From an uncultured Chloroflexia bacterium (GTDB lineage: Bacteria > Chloroflexota > Limnocylindria > Limnocylindrales > CSP1-4), in contig CAVZKO010000008.1 of the NCBI GenBank assembly GCA_963775855.1, forward strand, positions 3,422 through 67,421: a stretch of 64,000 bases of DNA. Reading direction: 5' to 3'. Below, piece after piece: positions 1,353 to 7,465 of this stretch. The notes beneath the pieces are model-generated. The model saw only the letters and a list, made by a program, of their open reading frames with translations. It ran no database searches and had not been told where the DNA came from. The stretch's first letter is position 1; each line of letters begins with the position of its first letter. A program made the position numbers and the translations under genes.

Positions 1353-2797
1353 ATGACGACCACCGCCGGCACCAAGCCGCACCCGATCTTCCTCGCCGGC
1401 CGCTGGGTCGAATCGGACGATCCGCTGGTCGTCACGAACCCGGCCAATCCGGACGAGCCGGCCGGCGCAACGTTCAATGCCAGCGAGGCCCAGTACGAGG
1501 AAGCGGTCGAGGCGGCCGTCGCGGCCTTCGAGGTGACCCGGACGCTGCCAGCCTACGAGCGCGGCGCGATCCTGCGGAACATCAGCGCCGGGATCAAGGC
1601 TCGCCGCGAGGAGCTCGGCAAGATCATGGCCCGCGAGGCCGGCAAACCGATCCGGGACGCGCTCATCGAGGTCGATCGGGCGGTCATCACGTTCCGGCTC
1701 GGCGCCGAGGAGGCGGAGCGGATGGTCGGCGAGACGATCCCGCTCGACCTCATGCCGGCGTCGAAGGGCCGCGTCGGCATCACCCGCCGCTTCCCGATCG
1801 GCCCGATCGCCGGGATCAGCCCGTTCAACTTCCCGCTCAACCTCGCCGCCCACAAGGTGTCGCCGGCGATCGCCTCGGGCAACACGATCGTCCTCAAGCC
1901 GCCGTCGAAGGACCCGCTCACGATGCTGACGGTCGCCGAGATCATCGAGGAGGCCGGCCCGCCGGCCGGTTCGGTCAGCATCCTGCCGATGACCCGCGAG
2001 CTCGGCGACAAGATGGTCGCTGACGAGCGCTTCAAGCTCCTGACGTTCACCGGCAGCCCGTCGGTCGGCTGGCGGATGAAGGAACGGGCCGGCAAGAAGA
2101 AGGTCGTCCTGGAGCTGGGCGGCAACGCCGGGGTCATCGTCGACAAGTCGGCCGACCTCGACTGGGCCGTCCGCCGGCTGCTCGTCGGTGCGTTCACGTA
2201 TGCCGGTCAGGTCTGCATCAGCGTCCAGCGGATGTTCGTCCACGAGGACATCTGGGACGAGCTGATGAAGCGCTTCGTCGAGGGCGCGAAGTCAATCAAG
2301 ATGGGCGATCCGCTCGATCCGGAGACGGAGCTCGGGCCGATGGTCGACGGGGCCGCCGCCGAGCGCACCCAGCGCTGGGTCGACGAGGCGGTGGCGATGG
2401 GCGGCAAGATCCTGCTGGGCGGCAAGGCCGACGGCAACTTCTTCCCGCCGACGATCCTCACGGACGTCCCACCGACGGCCCAGGTCTGCTCGAACGAGGC
2501 GTTCGCCCCGCTCGCCGTCGCCTTCCGGTTCAACGACTTCGGCGACGCGATCAACCAGGTCAACGACTCGATGTTCGGGCTGCAGACGGGCGTGTTCACG
2601 AACGATCTCGCCAACTCGTGGCGGGCGTTCAACGAGCTCGAGGTCGGCGGGGTGATCGTCAACGACGTGCCGACCTACCGGATCGACCACATGCCCTACG
2701 GCGGGGTCAAGGATCGGGCCTCGGCCGGGAGGGCCTCCGCTGGGCGATCGAGGACATGACCGAAATCCGAATCATGGTGCTGGCCCAGCCGGGATAA
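1353..2797 (+). CDS. Aldehyde dehydrogenase family protein (apparent 1-nt frameshift near 2714)
   Basis: PFNFP, FTGS, catalytic LELGGN and GQVCIS. The conserved tail GGVKD(S)GLGREGLRWAIEDMTEIRIMVLAQPG continues in a shifted frame to TAA at 2795-2797. Confidence 0.9.
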
Positions 2798-2833
2798 CGT
2801 CCGGCTCCCTGGTCCGCGTAAATGGGGCTCCCT

Positions 2834-2994
2834 GGTCCGCCAGCCGGACCAACGGACGATCGGGACTCTCGACCTGGCCCGATTCGGCCTGCTCCACCGT
2901 CTACTGGTCCGGCAGCCGGACCACTAGACGATCAGAAGCTCGAATCCGGGCCCGACGGAGCCGCTCGCTCGTCCGTTGGTCCGCGAGCCGGACC
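2834..2994. repeat. Triple-hairpin repeat, copy 1
   Basis: Three GGTCCG-N5-CGGACC palindromes at 2834-2850, 2906-2922 and 2978-2994, 72-bp period. Confidence 0.9.
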
Positions 2995-3008
2995 GCGTGC
3001 CGACGGGT

Positions 3009-3671
3009 TCAGAGGATGATGATTCCCCCGCGTCCAGGATCGGTTCCTGCACTCAGCGCCGCCATCATCTCGCGAGTGCGGGCCGGCATCAGGTCGTCCA
3101 ATCCCACTCCGATCGACGCCAGAGCCCGACGATTAGCCCGGGTGTCGGACACCAACAGGATCAGGTAACCACTCGGATCGTCGCGGAACTTAAGCCCGAG
3201 GCGCCGCTCCAGTGCCTGTCCATCGGCGATCCGCGTCTCAGCTTCGACGCGGGCCCGCCACGGCGTCGGATGGCGACAGGTGATCTCCGCATCCCATGCC
3301 CGCAGGTCGCCCTCGATGGGAAGCGGCACCTCGGTTCGCCACCGTAGGCTCGGGTGAAGTCGTGCCCGGAGGCGGTCGAGGAGCTGCAGCTGTGCGCGAT
3401 CTCGGATCGGGTCACCGGCTGGGTAGGCTCGAAGGCCCAGGTCGAGACCCACGACTGCGCACCACGCTCCGAGCTCGGCGATCGACACGCGCTCCAACTC
3501 CCCTCGCTCGAAGCGCAAGAGCTGTTGATGCGAAGCGGTTGACGCGGCCGCGACCTCCCGAAGGCTGAGGCCGGCGCCCACGCGCGCCAGACGATGTTCC
3601 TGCCCCAAACGCCTGAAGGCGTCCTTCGCGCGTCGGCGCCCTCGATCCGGCGGTCGCTCGCGGGTTCCCAT
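3009..3671 (-). CDS. XRE-family HTH fused to a PD-(D/E)XK / Vsr-DUF559-like nuclease domain
   Basis: N-terminal RLARVGAGLSLREVAAASTASHQQLLRFERG (XRE HTH). C-terminal RWRTEVPLP...RAWDAEI...RVEAETRI resembles a restriction-like nuclease core. Confidence 0.65.
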   Translation of the reverse strand: MGTRERPPDRGRRRAKDAFRRLGQEHRLARVGAGLSLREVAAASTASHQQLLRFERGELERVSIAELGAWCAVVGLDLGLRAYPAGDPIRDRAQLQLLDRLRARLHPSLRWRTEVPLPIEGDLRAWDAEITCRHPTPWRARVEAETRIADGQALERRLGLKFRDDPSGYLILLVSDTRANRRALASIGVGLDDLMPARTREMMAALSAGTDPGRGGIIIL

Positions 3672-3718
3672 GCTCGCATCATCCGACGCTGGGCTTTACC
3701 GGCGCTTTACTGACACCC

Positions 3719-3880
3719 GGTCCGCCAGCCGGACCAACGGACGAACGGGCGAGTCGAACCGGGCCGAATCGACCCGCTCCTCCGTCTGTTGGTCCGGTGG
3801 CCGGACCAATACACGAACGAAGCATGGAATCCCGGCCCGGATGAGCCGCCCCGTCCGCTCGTTGGTCCGCGAGCCGGACC
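3719..3880. repeat. Triple-hairpin repeat, copy 2
   Basis: Palindromes at 3719-3735, 3791-3807 and 3864-3880. The first 26 nt (GGTCCGCCAGCCGGACCAACGGACGA) are identical to copies 1 and 3. Confidence 0.9.
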
Positions 3881-3903
3881 AAGGGCCCGAGATCAGAGAA
3901 GTG

Positions 3904-3933
3904 ACGAACCCGCCGGTCGCCCGGCGGGTTCGT
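3904..3933 (-). terminator. GC-rich hairpin, probable terminator of the 5858-3957 gene
   Basis: Perfect 13-bp stem ACGAACCCGCCGG-tcgc-CCGGCGGGTTCGT, about 23 nt past the stop codon. Confidence 0.65.
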
Positions 3934-3956
3934 TCTGCGACTAGCTCCGAGGGAGC

Positions 3957-5858
3957 CTAGGACCGCTGCATCACGAAGAACGCGTCGACGGCGAACCATG
4001 GCCGGCCCGACGTCCGGAGGACGCGGACCGTGACCGTATGGTCGCCGGCGGACGTGAAGATCGTCTGGAGGATTCGTCTCGCCCGGAAGCTTGACGAATA
4101 GGTATCGATGGTGACCAGCAGCGCACCGTCCAGGTAGACGTCCGCCTTGCCCCGGGTCGGACCGGTGGGCCCGACGAGCCCGAAGCTCGGACCGTTGAAC
4201 GTGAACGTGACCTCCGAGCCCCTCGTCTCCGAGGCCTTCGCCTTGCCACCGAGGTAGTCGGAGTGGCCGGCGGTGACCCACGTCCCGGTGTAGGTTGCCG
4301 CCGTCTCCTGGGCGACGCTCGCGGTGAGCGTCGGTCCCGTGACCCAGGCAGAGGCCCTATCGGACTTGTCGAACGCTCGGGCCCGGTAGCGGTAGGCTCG
4401 TCCCGGCGCCACGGCGACGATCGCGGATGTCGCGGTCGCGGACGCCAGGCTGACATTTGCCCACGATCCGCCGTCGGTCGACTGCTGGAGCTGGTACAGC
4501 TTCAGCGTCGCGGCATCGCCGGTGAGCTTCCACGCCGTGTACAGCGGCACGGTCCCGGCCGCGAACGTCAAGCCTCCGGGAATCCGGGTCGACGGCTCGG
4601 TCGTTCCAACCGTGGCCGGTCCGGTAACCGGCGTCGGTATTGGCGTGGGCGTTGGCGTGGGGGTCGGGGCCGGTGTCGGGGGAGGCGTCGGGTCCGTGCC
4701 GCCGCTGGCATTCGGGCCGTAGATCCAGTCGGTGAACCCGAAGTTCTTGCCGAACCGGATCGGCGGCGAGAGCTTGTAGCTCGTGCCATACCGGGCGTCG
4801 AGCAGCCAGGTCTGCCACTCGTCATCGGCCGTCGCCGGCCACTTCGCTCGGTTGTAGAGGAATCGGACCGCTCGCAGCAGTGCCTTGTTCTCCCAGTTCC
4901 AGCTGTCGTAGCCGGCGACGCGGAGGAGCTCCGCCTGGAGAAGGGCGCCCTGCAGGCTTTCCCACGGATACCCGGTCCCGGTCGGCGGCCAGCGGAACGA
5001 ACCACCGCGGCGCATGTCGTCCGGGATGACGCCGTCAATGCTGACGCCGGCCTTCGTGCAGCCGGAGGGGTTGATTCCCACCGGTTGCGCCGCATTGCAC
5101 TGCCACGTCAGGTCGTCGCCGAAGTTGAATCCCGCGTACGTGGCGCGCGATCCGAGGAACCCCCGGAAGACCGTGGCCGCTCGCGCCATTTGCGCCGTAT
5201 CGCCGAGGTAGGCGGCGATCGCGACCCGGGCAGCGCCCGCATGGTTGCCCCAATTGTTGGGGCGCTTCTCGTGGGTTATGACGAGCGACTGCTCATCGAG
5301 GACCTTCGTGAGCAAAGAGCGAAGCCAGGGCCTGAACTTCTGGTCGTATGCGGGGTCGGCAGTCTTGAGCGAGATCAGGTCGGCCGCGATCACGAGGCTC
5401 GGCAGGTTACGTCCGAGCGCGAGCGTCCGCCCGCCGACTTCGGTGCCTTTGGCTGCCTTCAACGCCGCGATGACGGCCGTTCGATAGGCCACGGTCCCGG
5501 TCCGCGCGTACACCAGCGCCTTCGCCAGGACGGTGATGTCCGAGTTCTCGTCCTGGTCGGACAGGGTAAGGGTGCCGACGGCCTGATCGGCAACGGCCTT
5601 GAGGCCTCTCCAGGCCGCGCCGGACATCGGCTTCGTCCGAAGGGTGGCCGCCGAGACGAGCACGGGCCGTGTGGCGGCCTCAGCGCTATCAAGTCCCGGG
5701 TCGACGAACAGCTGCGAGAGGATCAACGTGGCGGCGAGAAGAACCTGTCCGACCACGATGACGCTGCGGTGACGGTTCCTGCGTGGTAGACCGAGGGTGA
5801 CTCCCCCGGCCGCTTGACGTGGTGCCCTCTGGGCGCCGTTGGGCGGAATCCCCGACAT
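3957..5858 (-). CDS. Secreted or membrane-anchored alginate-lyase-fold protein with Pro/Thr linker, FN3-like and C-terminal beta-sandwich domains (paralog A)
   Basis: ATG 5858 preceded by SD GGGAG. Hydrophobic N-terminal segment, EKRPNNWGNH motif (alpha/alpha-toroid lyase NN[HW] type), PTPTPTP linker, YRYRARA FN3-like strand, GPTGPTRG module. Confidence 0.65.
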   Translation of the reverse strand: MSGIPPNGAQRAPRQAAGGVTLGLPRRNRHRSVIVVGQVLLAATLILSQLFVDPGLDSAEAATRPVLVSAATLRTKPMSGAAWRGLKAVADQAVGTLTLSDQDENSDITVLAKALVYARTGTVAYRTAVIAALKAAKGTEVGGRTLALGRNLPSLVIAADLISLKTADPAYDQKFRPWLRSLLTKVLDEQSLVITHEKRPNNWGNHAGAARVAIAAYLGDTAQMARAATVFRGFLGSRATYAGFNFGDDLTWQCNAAQPVGINPSGCTKAGVSIDGVIPDDMRRGGSFRWPPTGTGYPWESLQGALLQAELLRVAGYDSWNWENKALLRAVRFLYNRAKWPATADDEWQTWLLDARYGTSYKLSPPIRFGKNFGFTDWIYGPNASGGTDPTPPPTPAPTPTPTPTPIPTPVTGPATVGTTEPSTRIPGGLTFAAGTVPLYTAWKLTGDAATLKLYQLQQSTDGGSWANVSLASATATSAIVAVAPGRAYRYRARAFDKSDRASAWVTGPTLTASVAQETAATYTGTWVTAGHSDYLGGKAKASETRGSEVTFTFNGPSFGLVGPTGPTRGKADVYLDGALLVTIDTYSSSFRARRILQTIFTSAGDHTVTVRVLRTSGRPWFAVDAFFVMQRS

Positions 5859-6048
5859 TCTGCTCCCTTCTACCAGAACGGCACGCTGGGGCGTGCCGAA
5901 CGAAGTTATGGCCCGGCCGCTCGGAGGGCGGGGCATTGACGGTAGAACGGGTGCTGCGCGTGACCTCGCGCCTGGGGGTCGCCCGTCCTGACCCTAGTTT
6001 GCACCGCGCGTCAAATGCGGTTCTGCCCGCGCCGCACCAACTTCTCCC

Positions 6049-6212
6049 GGTCCGCCAGCCGGACCAACGGACGAACGGGACCCTGGAAACGGGCCGAATT
6101 GACCGACCCGCACCACCGTGTGCCGGTCCTGTAGCCGGACCAAGTGACGACCGAAGCCGGGAATCCGGGCTACCTGGAGCATCCCACCGCTCGTTGGTCC
6201 GCCAGCCGGACC
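6049..6212. repeat. Triple-hairpin repeat, copy 3 (no adjacent nuclease gene)
   Basis: Palindromes at 6049-6065, 6125-6141 (imperfect) and 6196-6212, same orientation as copies 1 and 2. Confidence 0.88.
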
Positions 6213-6288
6213 AGGCGCCGACGGATGGAGCGTCCCGTCGCCCGGGACGCTTGGATCGACGGTACGGCGGGCGCATCATGCTCCGGCG

Positions 6289-7465
6289 ATGGACCTGACG
6301 CTTGATCCAGGGCAACTGGAGTTGCAGGCACGTGCGCGGGCGTTCGTCACGGAGGTGCTCCAGCCGCTCGAGGAGGAGTTCGAGCGGGCGGTGGGCGGCT
6401 GTCGCGGAAACAGGGCGAGCGACCTGCGCTCGGCCGCGATCGAGGCCCGGCTCCAGGGCGGCTCGTTGCCGCGGGAGGTCGGCGGCCAGGGCTGGACGGT
6501 CCTCGAGCAGGTCATCGTCCACGAGCAGCTGGGCCAGGTGACGGGCGGGCTCTGGTCGTACATCCCGGGCGCCTACAACGCGCTCGTCCACGCGACGCCG
6601 GAGCAGCGCGCGCGCTACCTCGATCCGTCGCTCCGCGGCGAGCGATCCGGCAGTTACGCCGTCACCGAGGATGCCGCCGGCTCCGACGCTCGGACCCTCG
6701 CGGCGACCGCGATGCGAGACAAGGCCACCGGGGACTACATCCTCAACGGCGAGAAGTGGTTCGTCACCGGCCCCGACGACACCGACTTCATGATCTTCCA
6801 CTGCGTCATGGTCGACGGCGACAAGCGGCTGCCGACGCTCTTCCTCGTCGACTACGAAACGCCCGGTCGTCACGATGAAGCACGACCCGGACTTCATGCA
6901 CACGTTCGCCGACCGCCATCCGCAGTTCGTCCTCGAGGACGTCCGCGTGCCGGCGACAGCAGTCCTGGGCGGCGTGGGGGAGGCCGACGCGCTGACGAAC
7001 GAGTGGTTCGTCGAGGAACGGATCCACATCGGGGCGCGCTGCAGCGGGGCGATGGAGCGGCTGCTCTCGCTGGCGGTCGAATGGGCGACCGGCCGGCGAC
7101 AGTTCGGCGAGCGGATCTACGACTTCCAGGGCGTTTCGTTCCCGCTCGCCGACTCGGCTGCCGACGCGTCCGCCGCGCGGCTGCTCACCCGCGAGGCCGC
7201 CTGGCTCGCGGACACCGGCGCGGACCAGAAGGTCGTCCACGCCAAGGCCTCGCTCGCCAAGCTGTTCGCGTCGGAGGCCGCGTTTCGGTGCGCCGATCGG
7301 GTCGTCCAGGTCTTCGGTGGCCGCGGCTATATGCGCGAGTTCCCGGCCGAGCGCTTCTTCCGCGAGCTGCGGGTCGACCGGATCTGGGAGGGCACCTCGG
7401 AGATCCAGCGACTGATCGTCGCCCGGGCGATGGAGAAGCGCGGCGTGTCGAGGGTCGTCGGATGA
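6289..7465 (+). CDS. Acyl-CoA dehydrogenase (frameshift near 6867)
   Basis: YAVTEDAAGSDA and LNGEKWFVT in the first frame. QFGERIYDFQGVSF, QVFGGRGYMRE and RIWEGTSEIQR in the second frame. Confidence 0.9.

Follow-up and report, generated by a model that had tools for sequence, protein, structure and literature searches.

The gene and its arrays

The window analyzed here is a stretch of 64,000 nucleotides from contig CAVZKO010000008.1 of an uncultured Chloroflexia bacterium of the order Limnocylindrales (assembly GCA_963775855.1). Near its start, a gene on the reverse strand (3009-3671) encodes a protein that joins an XRE-type helix-turn-helix (HTH) domain to a predicted restriction-endonuclease-like domain of the PD-(D/E)XK type, and arrays of 17-bp palindromes lie on both sides of it. 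Comparison of 81 homologous loci demonstrated that the half-site of the palindrome changes with the recognition helix of the protein. We conclude that a protein-and-repeat partner system, with the palindromes as predicted cognate sites, is well supported by sequence comparison. The features of the locus are as follows.

2803-2817, no strand: truncated left half of a palindrome unit (GGCTCCCTGGTCCGC, repeated at 2825-2839), directly 3' of the stop codon TAA (2795-2797) of the aldehyde dehydrogenase (ALDH) gene; read from the sequence
2834-2994, no strand: array copy 1, with 17-bp palindromes at 2834-2850, 2906-2922 and 2978-2994, spaced 72 bp, located where the ALDH and HTH-nuclease genes converge with their 3' ends
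3009-3671, reverse strand: gene for the XRE-HTH/PD-(D/E)XK-like protein, 220 aa; from the list of open reading frames (ORFs) and profile searches
3012-3416, reverse strand: predicted restriction-endonuclease-like C-terminal domain, residues 86-220; from an alignment of 31 sequences, a structure model and Foldseek
3426-3611, reverse strand: HTH domain, residues 21-82, with recognition helix S-H-Q-Q-L-L-R at about residues 47-53; from profile and fold matches
3672-3718, reverse strand: spacer between the last palindrome and the ATG, with a GTAAAGC...GGTAAAG...GATGAT motif and no Shine-Dalgarno sequence; from comparison of 44 non-redundant upstream regions
3719-3880, no strand: array copy 2, the upstream array of the HTH-nuclease gene, with palindromes at 3719-3735, 3791-3807 and 3864-3880, or -64, -136 and -209 from the start codon
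3957-5936, reverse strand: alginate-lyase-like gene, 659 aa, enclosed by array copies 2 and 3; from Pfam (PF05426) and synteny
6049-6212, no strand: array copy 3, between the divergently oriented lyase-like gene and an acyl-CoA dehydrogenase (ACAD) gene, with its three palindromes at 6049-6065, 6125-6141 (degenerate) and 6196-6212

A pattern scan of the window for GGTCCGNNNNNCGGACC found matches at 2834, 2906 and 2978 (copy 1) and at 3719, 3791 and 3864 (copy 2), with the GGTCCG-N5-CGGACC palindromes spaced 72 and 72 bp in copy 1 and 72 and 73 bp in copy 2. The window contains eight exact sites of this form against 0.07 expected, and none of 100 shuffles reached eight. An earlier sequence-only reading of this stretch had described three such hairpins per copy, which the exact matches in both copies bear out, and had placed the gene 14 bp from copy 1 and 47 bp from copy 2, which agrees with the intervals 2995-3008 and 3672-3718. 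Two pairings that it proposed in copy 1 were also recovered: AACGGACGA (2851-2859) is the exact reverse complement of TCGTCCGTT (2969-2977), and hairpin 2 extends as CGTCTAcTGGTCCGGcagCCGGACCAcTAGACG. Its linker length of 54-59 nt is corrected here to 55-56 nt. Arrays do flank the gene on both sides, as it stated, but they are not exclusive to the gene, as demonstrated by the third copy at 6049-6212. The degenerate middle palindrome of copy 3 reads GGTCCTGTAGCCGGACC (6125-6141), and an ortholog of this copy exists in a related genome, G009. The three copies occupy three consecutive intergenic regions (ALDH to HTH-nuclease gene, HTH-nuclease gene to lyase, lyase to ACAD) and share 75-80% identity across about 170-185 bp, linkers included. 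The half unit at 2803-2817 has the appearance of a leftover, either from the contraction of an array or from the cassette boundary.

The whole array is a quasi-palindrome, and single-stranded copy 1 is predicted to fold into one long hairpin (-55.7 kcal/mol, z = -5.8). Such strong strand folding, together with the many copies located just 3' of stop codons, would suit arrays that act as RNA (multi-hairpin stabilizers of 3' untranslated regions, terminators or a small RNA) and whose link to the gene is incidental. We consider this very improbable, given that an Rfam scan of 2500-6500 returned chance miRNA-like matches and no real family, and that a promoter and terminator scan found no T-run or intrinsic terminator at the arrays. 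The element moreover has strand symmetry, the array belonging to the gene stands upstream of the probable promoter, and co-variation with a DNA-reading helix (see below) is unexpected for an RNA element. A CRISPR array was ruled out, as the 55-nt linkers are conserved between units and between loci and are not unique spacers.

The protein and its predicted cognate sites

The HTH domain scores 24 bits against PF13560, under the 27-bit cut-off, and PF13560 is recorded for many homologs. A PDB profile search matched this domain to HigA3 (4e-5) and ClgR, and Foldseek matched it with probability 1.0 to the XRE regulators ClgR, HipB and SinR and to C-proteins (C.AhdI, C.BclI and C.Esp1396I among the matches). 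Profile and fold matches agree on the five-helix HTH of the XRE/Cro-CI family.

The genomes compared are all metagenome-assembled genomes (MAGs) of soil Chloroflexota ("Candidatus Limnocylindrales"). At many of the 81 loci, three 17-bp palindromes about 72 bp apart lie 5' of the gene, at about -67, -139 and -211, and across homologs the nearest one lies at -64 to -90 from the start codon. The palindrome positions of copy 2 recur in homologs of six specificity classes. Upstream arrays with a period of about 72 bp were found at L001, L003, L004, L007, L008, L009, L012, L013, L017, L019, L021-L023, L039 and L078 (the latter a paralog in the window genome itself), among others, and arrays on both sides of the gene at L001-L004, L014 and L017. 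Recognition helix and half-site pair as follows.

Helix SHQQ(L/V), half-site GGTCC: 12 of 13 loci with upstream sequence; proteins 57-100% identical, from several tree clades
Helix SHAR(V/I), half-site GAACG: 4 of 4 loci
Helix SHSKV, half-site GGAAC: 2 of 2 loci
Helix SYQQLF, half-site GTTCC: 2 of 2 loci
Helix SHAQLW, half-site GGTTC: 1 of 1 locus
Helix SRSQLC, half-site GTCCC: 1 of 1 locus

No crossed pairing, in which the palindrome of one class stands at a locus of another, was found across the six helix classes. Because the half-site changes with the recognition helix, the identification of the arrays as the protein's predicted cognate sites is well supported. The GGTCC, GGAAC, GGTTC, GTTCC and GTCCC classes have the form 5-N7-5, and the GAACG class has the form 5-N5-5 inside the same 17-bp frame. 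Differing half-site spacing was considered as an argument against a single dimer geometry and was dropped, since most classes are 5-N7-5 and GAACG fits the 17-bp frame. Outer arms of the type ACGGRCGA/TCGYCCGT recur in several classes. At one further locus, L006 (helix SHVQLL), the palindromes are asymmetric (TGGTACG-N5-CGGACCA) and lie at -257, -165 and -83, spaced 92 and 82 bp; this locus may represent an intermediate in a change of specificity.

By the same comparison, it is well supported that the upstream array is part of the gene's control region and a candidate operator array. Across classes, a motif of the form GTAAGC...GTGAAG...CAYGAT recurs in the interval from the last palindrome to the ATG. 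This interval has no Shine-Dalgarno sequence, and the promoter scan gave no canonical sigma-70 match. From the conserved motif and the missing Shine-Dalgarno sequence, we take the spacer at 3672-3718 to be a probable promoter, serving a leaderless or short-leader mRNA.

The pairing bears on a second alternative, in which the arrays are autonomous repeats resembling repetitive extragenic palindromic (REP) sequences, bacterial interspersed mosaic elements (BIMEs) or miniature inverted-repeat transposable elements. Such repeats would be moved by host functions or an unseen transposase, and the HTH gene would be a frequent neighbor or would have adopted the repeat as an operator. Repeats do occur far from the gene, their unit number varies as in variable-number tandem repeats and BIMEs, and a transposase could be missed in a MAG that is 69% complete. 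We nevertheless regard this explanation as improbable, as it is opposed by the co-variation of helix and half-site across six classes and by the fixed palindrome positions (about -67, -139 and -211) 5' of the gene. Each repeat class is also found only where the matching protein class is encoded, and the promoter array is kept in classes that have not dispersed.

A whole-protein fold search was swamped by the HTH, so the C-terminal domain was modeled separately. The model (pLDDT 90, pTM 0.86) has the order alpha-beta-beta-beta-alpha-beta (H-E-E-E-H-E). The alignment of 31 sequences, which extends down to 36% identity, shows no variation at E114 and D127 and keeps E143 and E145 in at least 90% of its members. 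The model places D127 on strand 2 and E143-A-E145 on strand 3, the positions expected of a PD-(D/E)XK site, and E114 on strand 1, and we take the E114/D127/E143-x-E145 pattern to resemble the E/D/E-x-E site of BamHI. Foldseek against the PDB returned SfsA, EndoMS, DdmD, PfoI and PspGI, all weakly. Against viral structures it returned VRR-NUC, restriction endonuclease, Mrr, homing endonuclease, MmcB-like and endonuclease-I-like (T7-endo-I-like) proteins with probability 0.75-1.0; the best-ranked of these matches are unnamed proteins, and the named ones are mainly nucleases of the restriction-endonuclease-like superfamily. A restriction-endonuclease-like fold, which the sequence-only reading had anticipated for the C-terminus, is supported as a prediction by model confidence, nuclease neighbors and conserved acidic residues, and catalysis by the domain is plausible on the model.

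The family is large and uncharacterized: it has more than 1,468 homologs, its C-terminal domain forms at least 1,196 clusters at 50% identity, and no Pfam model covers this domain. PADLOC and PHROGs assigned the protein to no defense or phage family, and NCBIfam gave weak HTH matches alone. A profile search of 1.84 billion representatives found only proteins of the same architecture among the 150 matches listed, with no bridge to a named nuclease family. The G+C content at third codon positions is unusually low, at 0.73 for the gene at 3009-3671 and 0.78 for the second family member in the same genome, against 0.92-0.95 for neighboring genes.

Home locus, insertion and dispersal

At least 35 of the 81 loci share one gene context, consisting of a divergent Amidohydro_3 gene (PF07969), the array, the HTH-nuclease gene and a glyoxalase-family gene, and this is the usual position of the family. 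The second family member of the window genome (G000), L078, stands at this home locus (C2:168649-169306); it is 71% identical to the window protein and apparently frameshifted near residue 25. Its GGAAC-N7-GTTCC palindromes lie at C2:168438, about 168510 (degenerate) and 168582, and nowhere else in the genome.

The window gene stands elsewhere, in the spacer between ALDH and ACAD genes. This spacer consists of 130 bp of spacer only in G003, holds a small SHOCT-like ORF in G015, G002 and G007, and holds an unrelated repeat in G008. It contains array, gene and array in G004, and array, gene, array, lyase-like gene and array in G000 and G005. On the protein tree the clade of the window gene is sister to L023, a home-locus gene of the SHQQ class, and the distinction between home locus and elsewhere changes at least six times. 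The empty spacer in relatives and these changes of locus indicate that the gene with its arrays has moved, and more than once in the family. At the level of sequence comparison, the window copy with its arrays is demonstrated to be a secondary insertion into the ALDH-ACAD spacer, to which the lyase-like gene and one further array were added later. The lyase-like gene is an extra insert present only in G000, G005 (C5:882063) and G009 (C16:193732). A paralog with 52% identity stands in the polysaccharide locus, about 10 kb from it, so the gene looks like a local duplicate that came to lie between arrays. No convincing target-site duplication was found at the cassette boundary or at the array that is present in G005 and missing at C8:430300 in G000.

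Further details of this spacer and its neighbor were observed. The spacer is a hot spot for small inserts: the SHOCT-like ORF (L085, L087 and L088) encodes a membrane-anchored protein (...RYARGEIDAAEYEERRRTLGV), and the repeat in G008 (L089) is an unrelated tandem repeat of about 72 bp. The ALDH gene (1353-2759) shows a frame shift near 2713, with GATCGGG where relatives have GATTCGGG. Its conserved C-terminus (...GLGREGLRWAIEDMTEIRIMVL) runs on in another frame to the TAA at 2795-2797, and relatives have 491-493 aa compared with 478 here; the frame shift is probably a long-read assembly error.

The arrays are also dispersed. The window genome (3.43 Mb in 8 contigs, 69% complete) contains 26 exact palindromes. 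They form 14 clusters, equivalent to about 11 arrays of two or three units; at least 3 of the 11 are situated between converging genes and have no promoter there to regulate. Counts of GGTCCG-N5-CGGACC are 26, 57, 45, 115 and 93 in five long-read genomes with an 87-100% identical ortholog, 24 in a short-read MAG with an ortholog, and 5-20 (20, 14, 9, 5, 6 and 6) in other genomes of the SHQQ class. Genomes checked as lacking a gene of this class have 0-5, with 0-6 for a reversed-pattern control. These counts come from MAGs of 58-92% completeness, in which short-read assemblies lose or collapse repeats, and five genomes with intermediate counts (G001, G010, G011, G017 and G022) were left unassigned in the correlation of gene and array. 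Two other classes behave alike: the single genome with a SHAQLW gene has 42 occurrences of GGTTCG-N5-CGAACC, grouped in at least 12 arrays, against 0-3 in other genomes, and GAACGC-N3-GCGTTC occurs 29, 12, 9 and 8 times in G003, G004, G012 and G013, with a control of 0-2. A sister family with genomes of about 1.1 Mb has neither gene nor arrays. The window genome also carries two GGAACGC-N3-GCGTTCC palindromes 51 bp apart at C2:224150-224217, of the class paired with the SHARV helix. This pair may be an orphan array, as no gene of the SHARV class was found in the 69%-complete genome.

About 10-40 further intergenic sites carry copies of the whole array, with varying unit number and only in genomes that encode the matching protein class, and these dispersed copies share 70-80% identity over about 165 bp, linkers included. 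Because linkers are common to the copies, the copies appear to have arisen by copying of an element of about 170 bp. It is fairly well supported, from shared linkers, sites without promoters, class-specific distribution and independent proliferation in at least three classes, that the dispersed arrays are copies of the operator array. The arrays closest in sequence to the gene's own array are clustered on the gene's contig. Orthologous sites differ in unit number (1 against 3, 1 against 4, and 3 against 7, the last at the array upstream of the gene in G009). Some arrays in G009 have a 51-bp period and 4-6 units with the same GGTCC palindrome (C2:138042-138239 and C13:518946-519197), so linker length can change while the palindrome is kept.

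The site at C8:430300, filled in G005 and empty in G000, was examined as a new insertion and rejected; a terminator hairpin is cut off in G000 and the array is present in G009, which indicates a deletion in G000. In the comparison of empty and filled sites that the sequence-only reading had called for, the site is empty in more distant relatives; within the close clade most arrays are orthologous and the one resolved difference is the G000 deletion. The empty site in distant relatives and the absence of a T-run also speak against the arrays being fixed orthologous terminators.

These results can be read as a protein-and-repeat partner system, in which a single-gene XRE-HTH/PD-(D/E)XK-like cassette with its own cognate arrays works like REPIN-RAYT, the pairing of REP doublets with a REP-associated tyrosine transposase (PMC3337134, PMC3116915), using an unrelated enzyme. 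In our estimate this reading is evenly balanced between right and wrong. The recognition helix is predicted to read the 5-N7-5 palindrome (GGTCC-N7-GGACC here), which the locus comparison supports. The 72-bp spacing is close to seven helical turns and would place the three sites on one face of the DNA, where dimers could assemble cooperatively and autoregulate the leaderless or short-leader promoter. In the weakest step, the nuclease domain would nick or cut the bound array, or its cruciform or long hairpin. Repair from another copy could then produce gain and loss of units, local homogenization, occasional new copies and capture of genes bounded by arrays. On the sequence evidence it is plausible that the nuclease-like domain drives array copying, resizing and cassette movement. 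A stronger version would make this a second, independently evolved bacterial repeat-and-enzyme replicator, whose HTH-nuclease cuts phased arrays or their cruciform and in which break repair copies, resizes, homogenizes and seeds arrays and moves cassettes, the lyase-like gene included. The 1-11 paralogs per genome, with helix and palindrome co-diverging, would then be mutually insulated lineages. We hold this version as a whole to be unlikely.

Several observations weigh against the partner-system reading. Homologs had been expected from the sequence alone to be flanked by family-specific arrays; this holds for the upstream array, which is class-specific and the constant partner of the gene, but downstream arrays occur in a minority of loci, namely the closest orthologs, L014 and possibly L028 and L029. 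In the GGAAC (G000) and GTTCC (G016, G024) classes, the two at the home locus that were counted genome-wide, arrays are confined to the gene's own promoter, and proteins with the same conserved acidic residues exist without any array dispersal. Since two home-locus classes have arrays solely at their own promoter, the basal state looks like an autoregulated DNA-binding protein and not a selfish element. Phylogeny is a partial confounder of the genome-level correlation between gene class and palindrome count, as are MAG completeness and the collapse of repeats in short-read assemblies. The highest palindrome count (115) belongs to G009, a genome whose ortholog reads frameshifted; this is possibly a long-read error, and several long-read assemblies show frameshifts that are possibly sequencing errors. 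In the C-terminal domain, the canonical lysine is absent from the acidic motif (D...E-x-E), fold matches in the PDB stay weak, none with E below 0.05 or probability above 0.54, and searches of Pfam (31 members; scattered chance matches) and of PDB profiles returned nothing. Finally, most arrays stand at orthologous sites in G000, G004, G005 and G009, and no recent insertion, cleavage or excision could be demonstrated among the compared clade genomes.

Some of these points would be expected if the protein were an ordinary autoregulated transcription factor or architectural protein, its nuclease-like domain serving oligomerization or ligand binding, and if the dispersed arrays were host-selected sites (a regulon, insulators or roadblocks) duplicated by ordinary recombination. 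The home-locus array in the divergent amidohydrolase/HTH region has the classic layout of a regulator and its target, two classes keep their arrays solely at that promoter, and 72-bp spacing fits cooperative binding on one face. The age and orthology of the arrays within the clade, and the absence of a sequence match to a nuclease family in Pfam and PDB profile searches, point the same way. We consider this, the main alternative, possible, though rather doubtful, because arrays between converging genes have no promoter there and because shared linkers indicate copying of an element of about 170 bp rather than evolution of binding sites. Independent proliferation of this family's arrays in at least three classes is likewise hard to explain for a host regulon, as is the conservation of acidic residues at the expected PD-(D/E)XK positions down to 36% identity. 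For the reading as a protein paired with its own repeats, then, the pairing, the class specificity and the predicted nuclease fold stand from the original proposal of a REPtron-like unit without an HUH enzyme, whereas a nuclease that moves repeats is so far a hypothesis and a selfish basal state is not supported.

Comparison with known systems

Literature searches found no description of this pairing of HTH-nuclease and palindrome array. To our knowledge, REPIN-RAYT is the only well-described case of a bacterial chromosomal, vertically inherited gene with its own dispersed palindromic repeats. As in REPIN-RAYT, cognate palindromic repeats flank a short gene that is inherited mostly vertically, and one type of enzyme gene goes with one type of repeat, with one copy per type per genome. 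The repeats are likewise extragenic, found at tens of sites, sometimes tandem, and fold into long hairpins. Dispersal beyond the gene is seen in the GGTCC (26-115), GGTTC (42) and GAACG (8-29) classes and is not seen in the GGAAC and GTTCC classes.

The differences are equally clear. The enzyme here combines an XRE-HTH with a predicted restriction-endonuclease-like domain, in place of an HUH/Y1 transposase, and each repeat unit comprises three 17-bp palindromes placed 72 bp apart. Genomes carry fewer copies, not all classes have dispersed, and mobilization is here only a proposal. PF01797 (HUH-Y1, RAYT) is absent from the window genome (69% complete, with positive controls found), as the suggestion of a non-HUH system had implied, and the flanked protein matches HTH families alone. 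REP sequences carry a conserved GTAG or CGTC tetranucleotide as an end tag (PMC3733652). CGTC occurs in the outer arm of some units here (TCGTCCGT) and is missing in others, such as copy 3 and C5:641421, so that there is no consistent GTAG/CGTC tag. Because the HUH transposase is absent and this tag is lacking, the system is not a member of REPIN-RAYT.

The BIMEs and REP clusters of enterobacteria and the mycobacterial interspersed repetitive unit (MIRU) type of repeats are intergenic tandem palindromic units with conserved linkers. They resemble the present arrays in the variation of unit number between strains and in their frequent location at the 3' ends of genes. Units here all point in the same direction, whereas the Y and Z units of BIMEs alternate, and here a co-varying DNA-binding protein is encoded beside the master copy.

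The C-proteins found in type II restriction-modification systems, and likewise lambda CI, whose OL and OR operators are triple, are XRE-type HTH proteins that bind palindromic boxes 5' of their own genes. The C-proteins share with the present protein a link to PD-(D/E)XK nucleases, and lambda CI shares three operators per array and arrays on both sides of the gene. The present system differs in combining the HTH and the nuclease-like domain in a single polypeptide, in lacking a nearby methyltransferase gene, in operators that stand 72 bp from one another instead of side by side, and in arrays scattered over the chromosome.

The system could offer an explanation for the origin of intergenic repeat arrays in operator arrays, and for the way in which such arrays end up enclosing and moving single genes. 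The table of helices and half-sites (QQ with TC, AR or SK with AA, AQ with TT) is a natural specificity series that is directly testable in vitro. The host lineage, Limnocylindrales, is known almost only from metagenomes, and the replicator reading, if true, would place such lineages inside the genomes of a very abundant soil class. In the match of gene class to repeat class, in adjacency and in class-specific dispersal, the system appears to follow the same logic as REPIN-RAYT from an unrelated protein.

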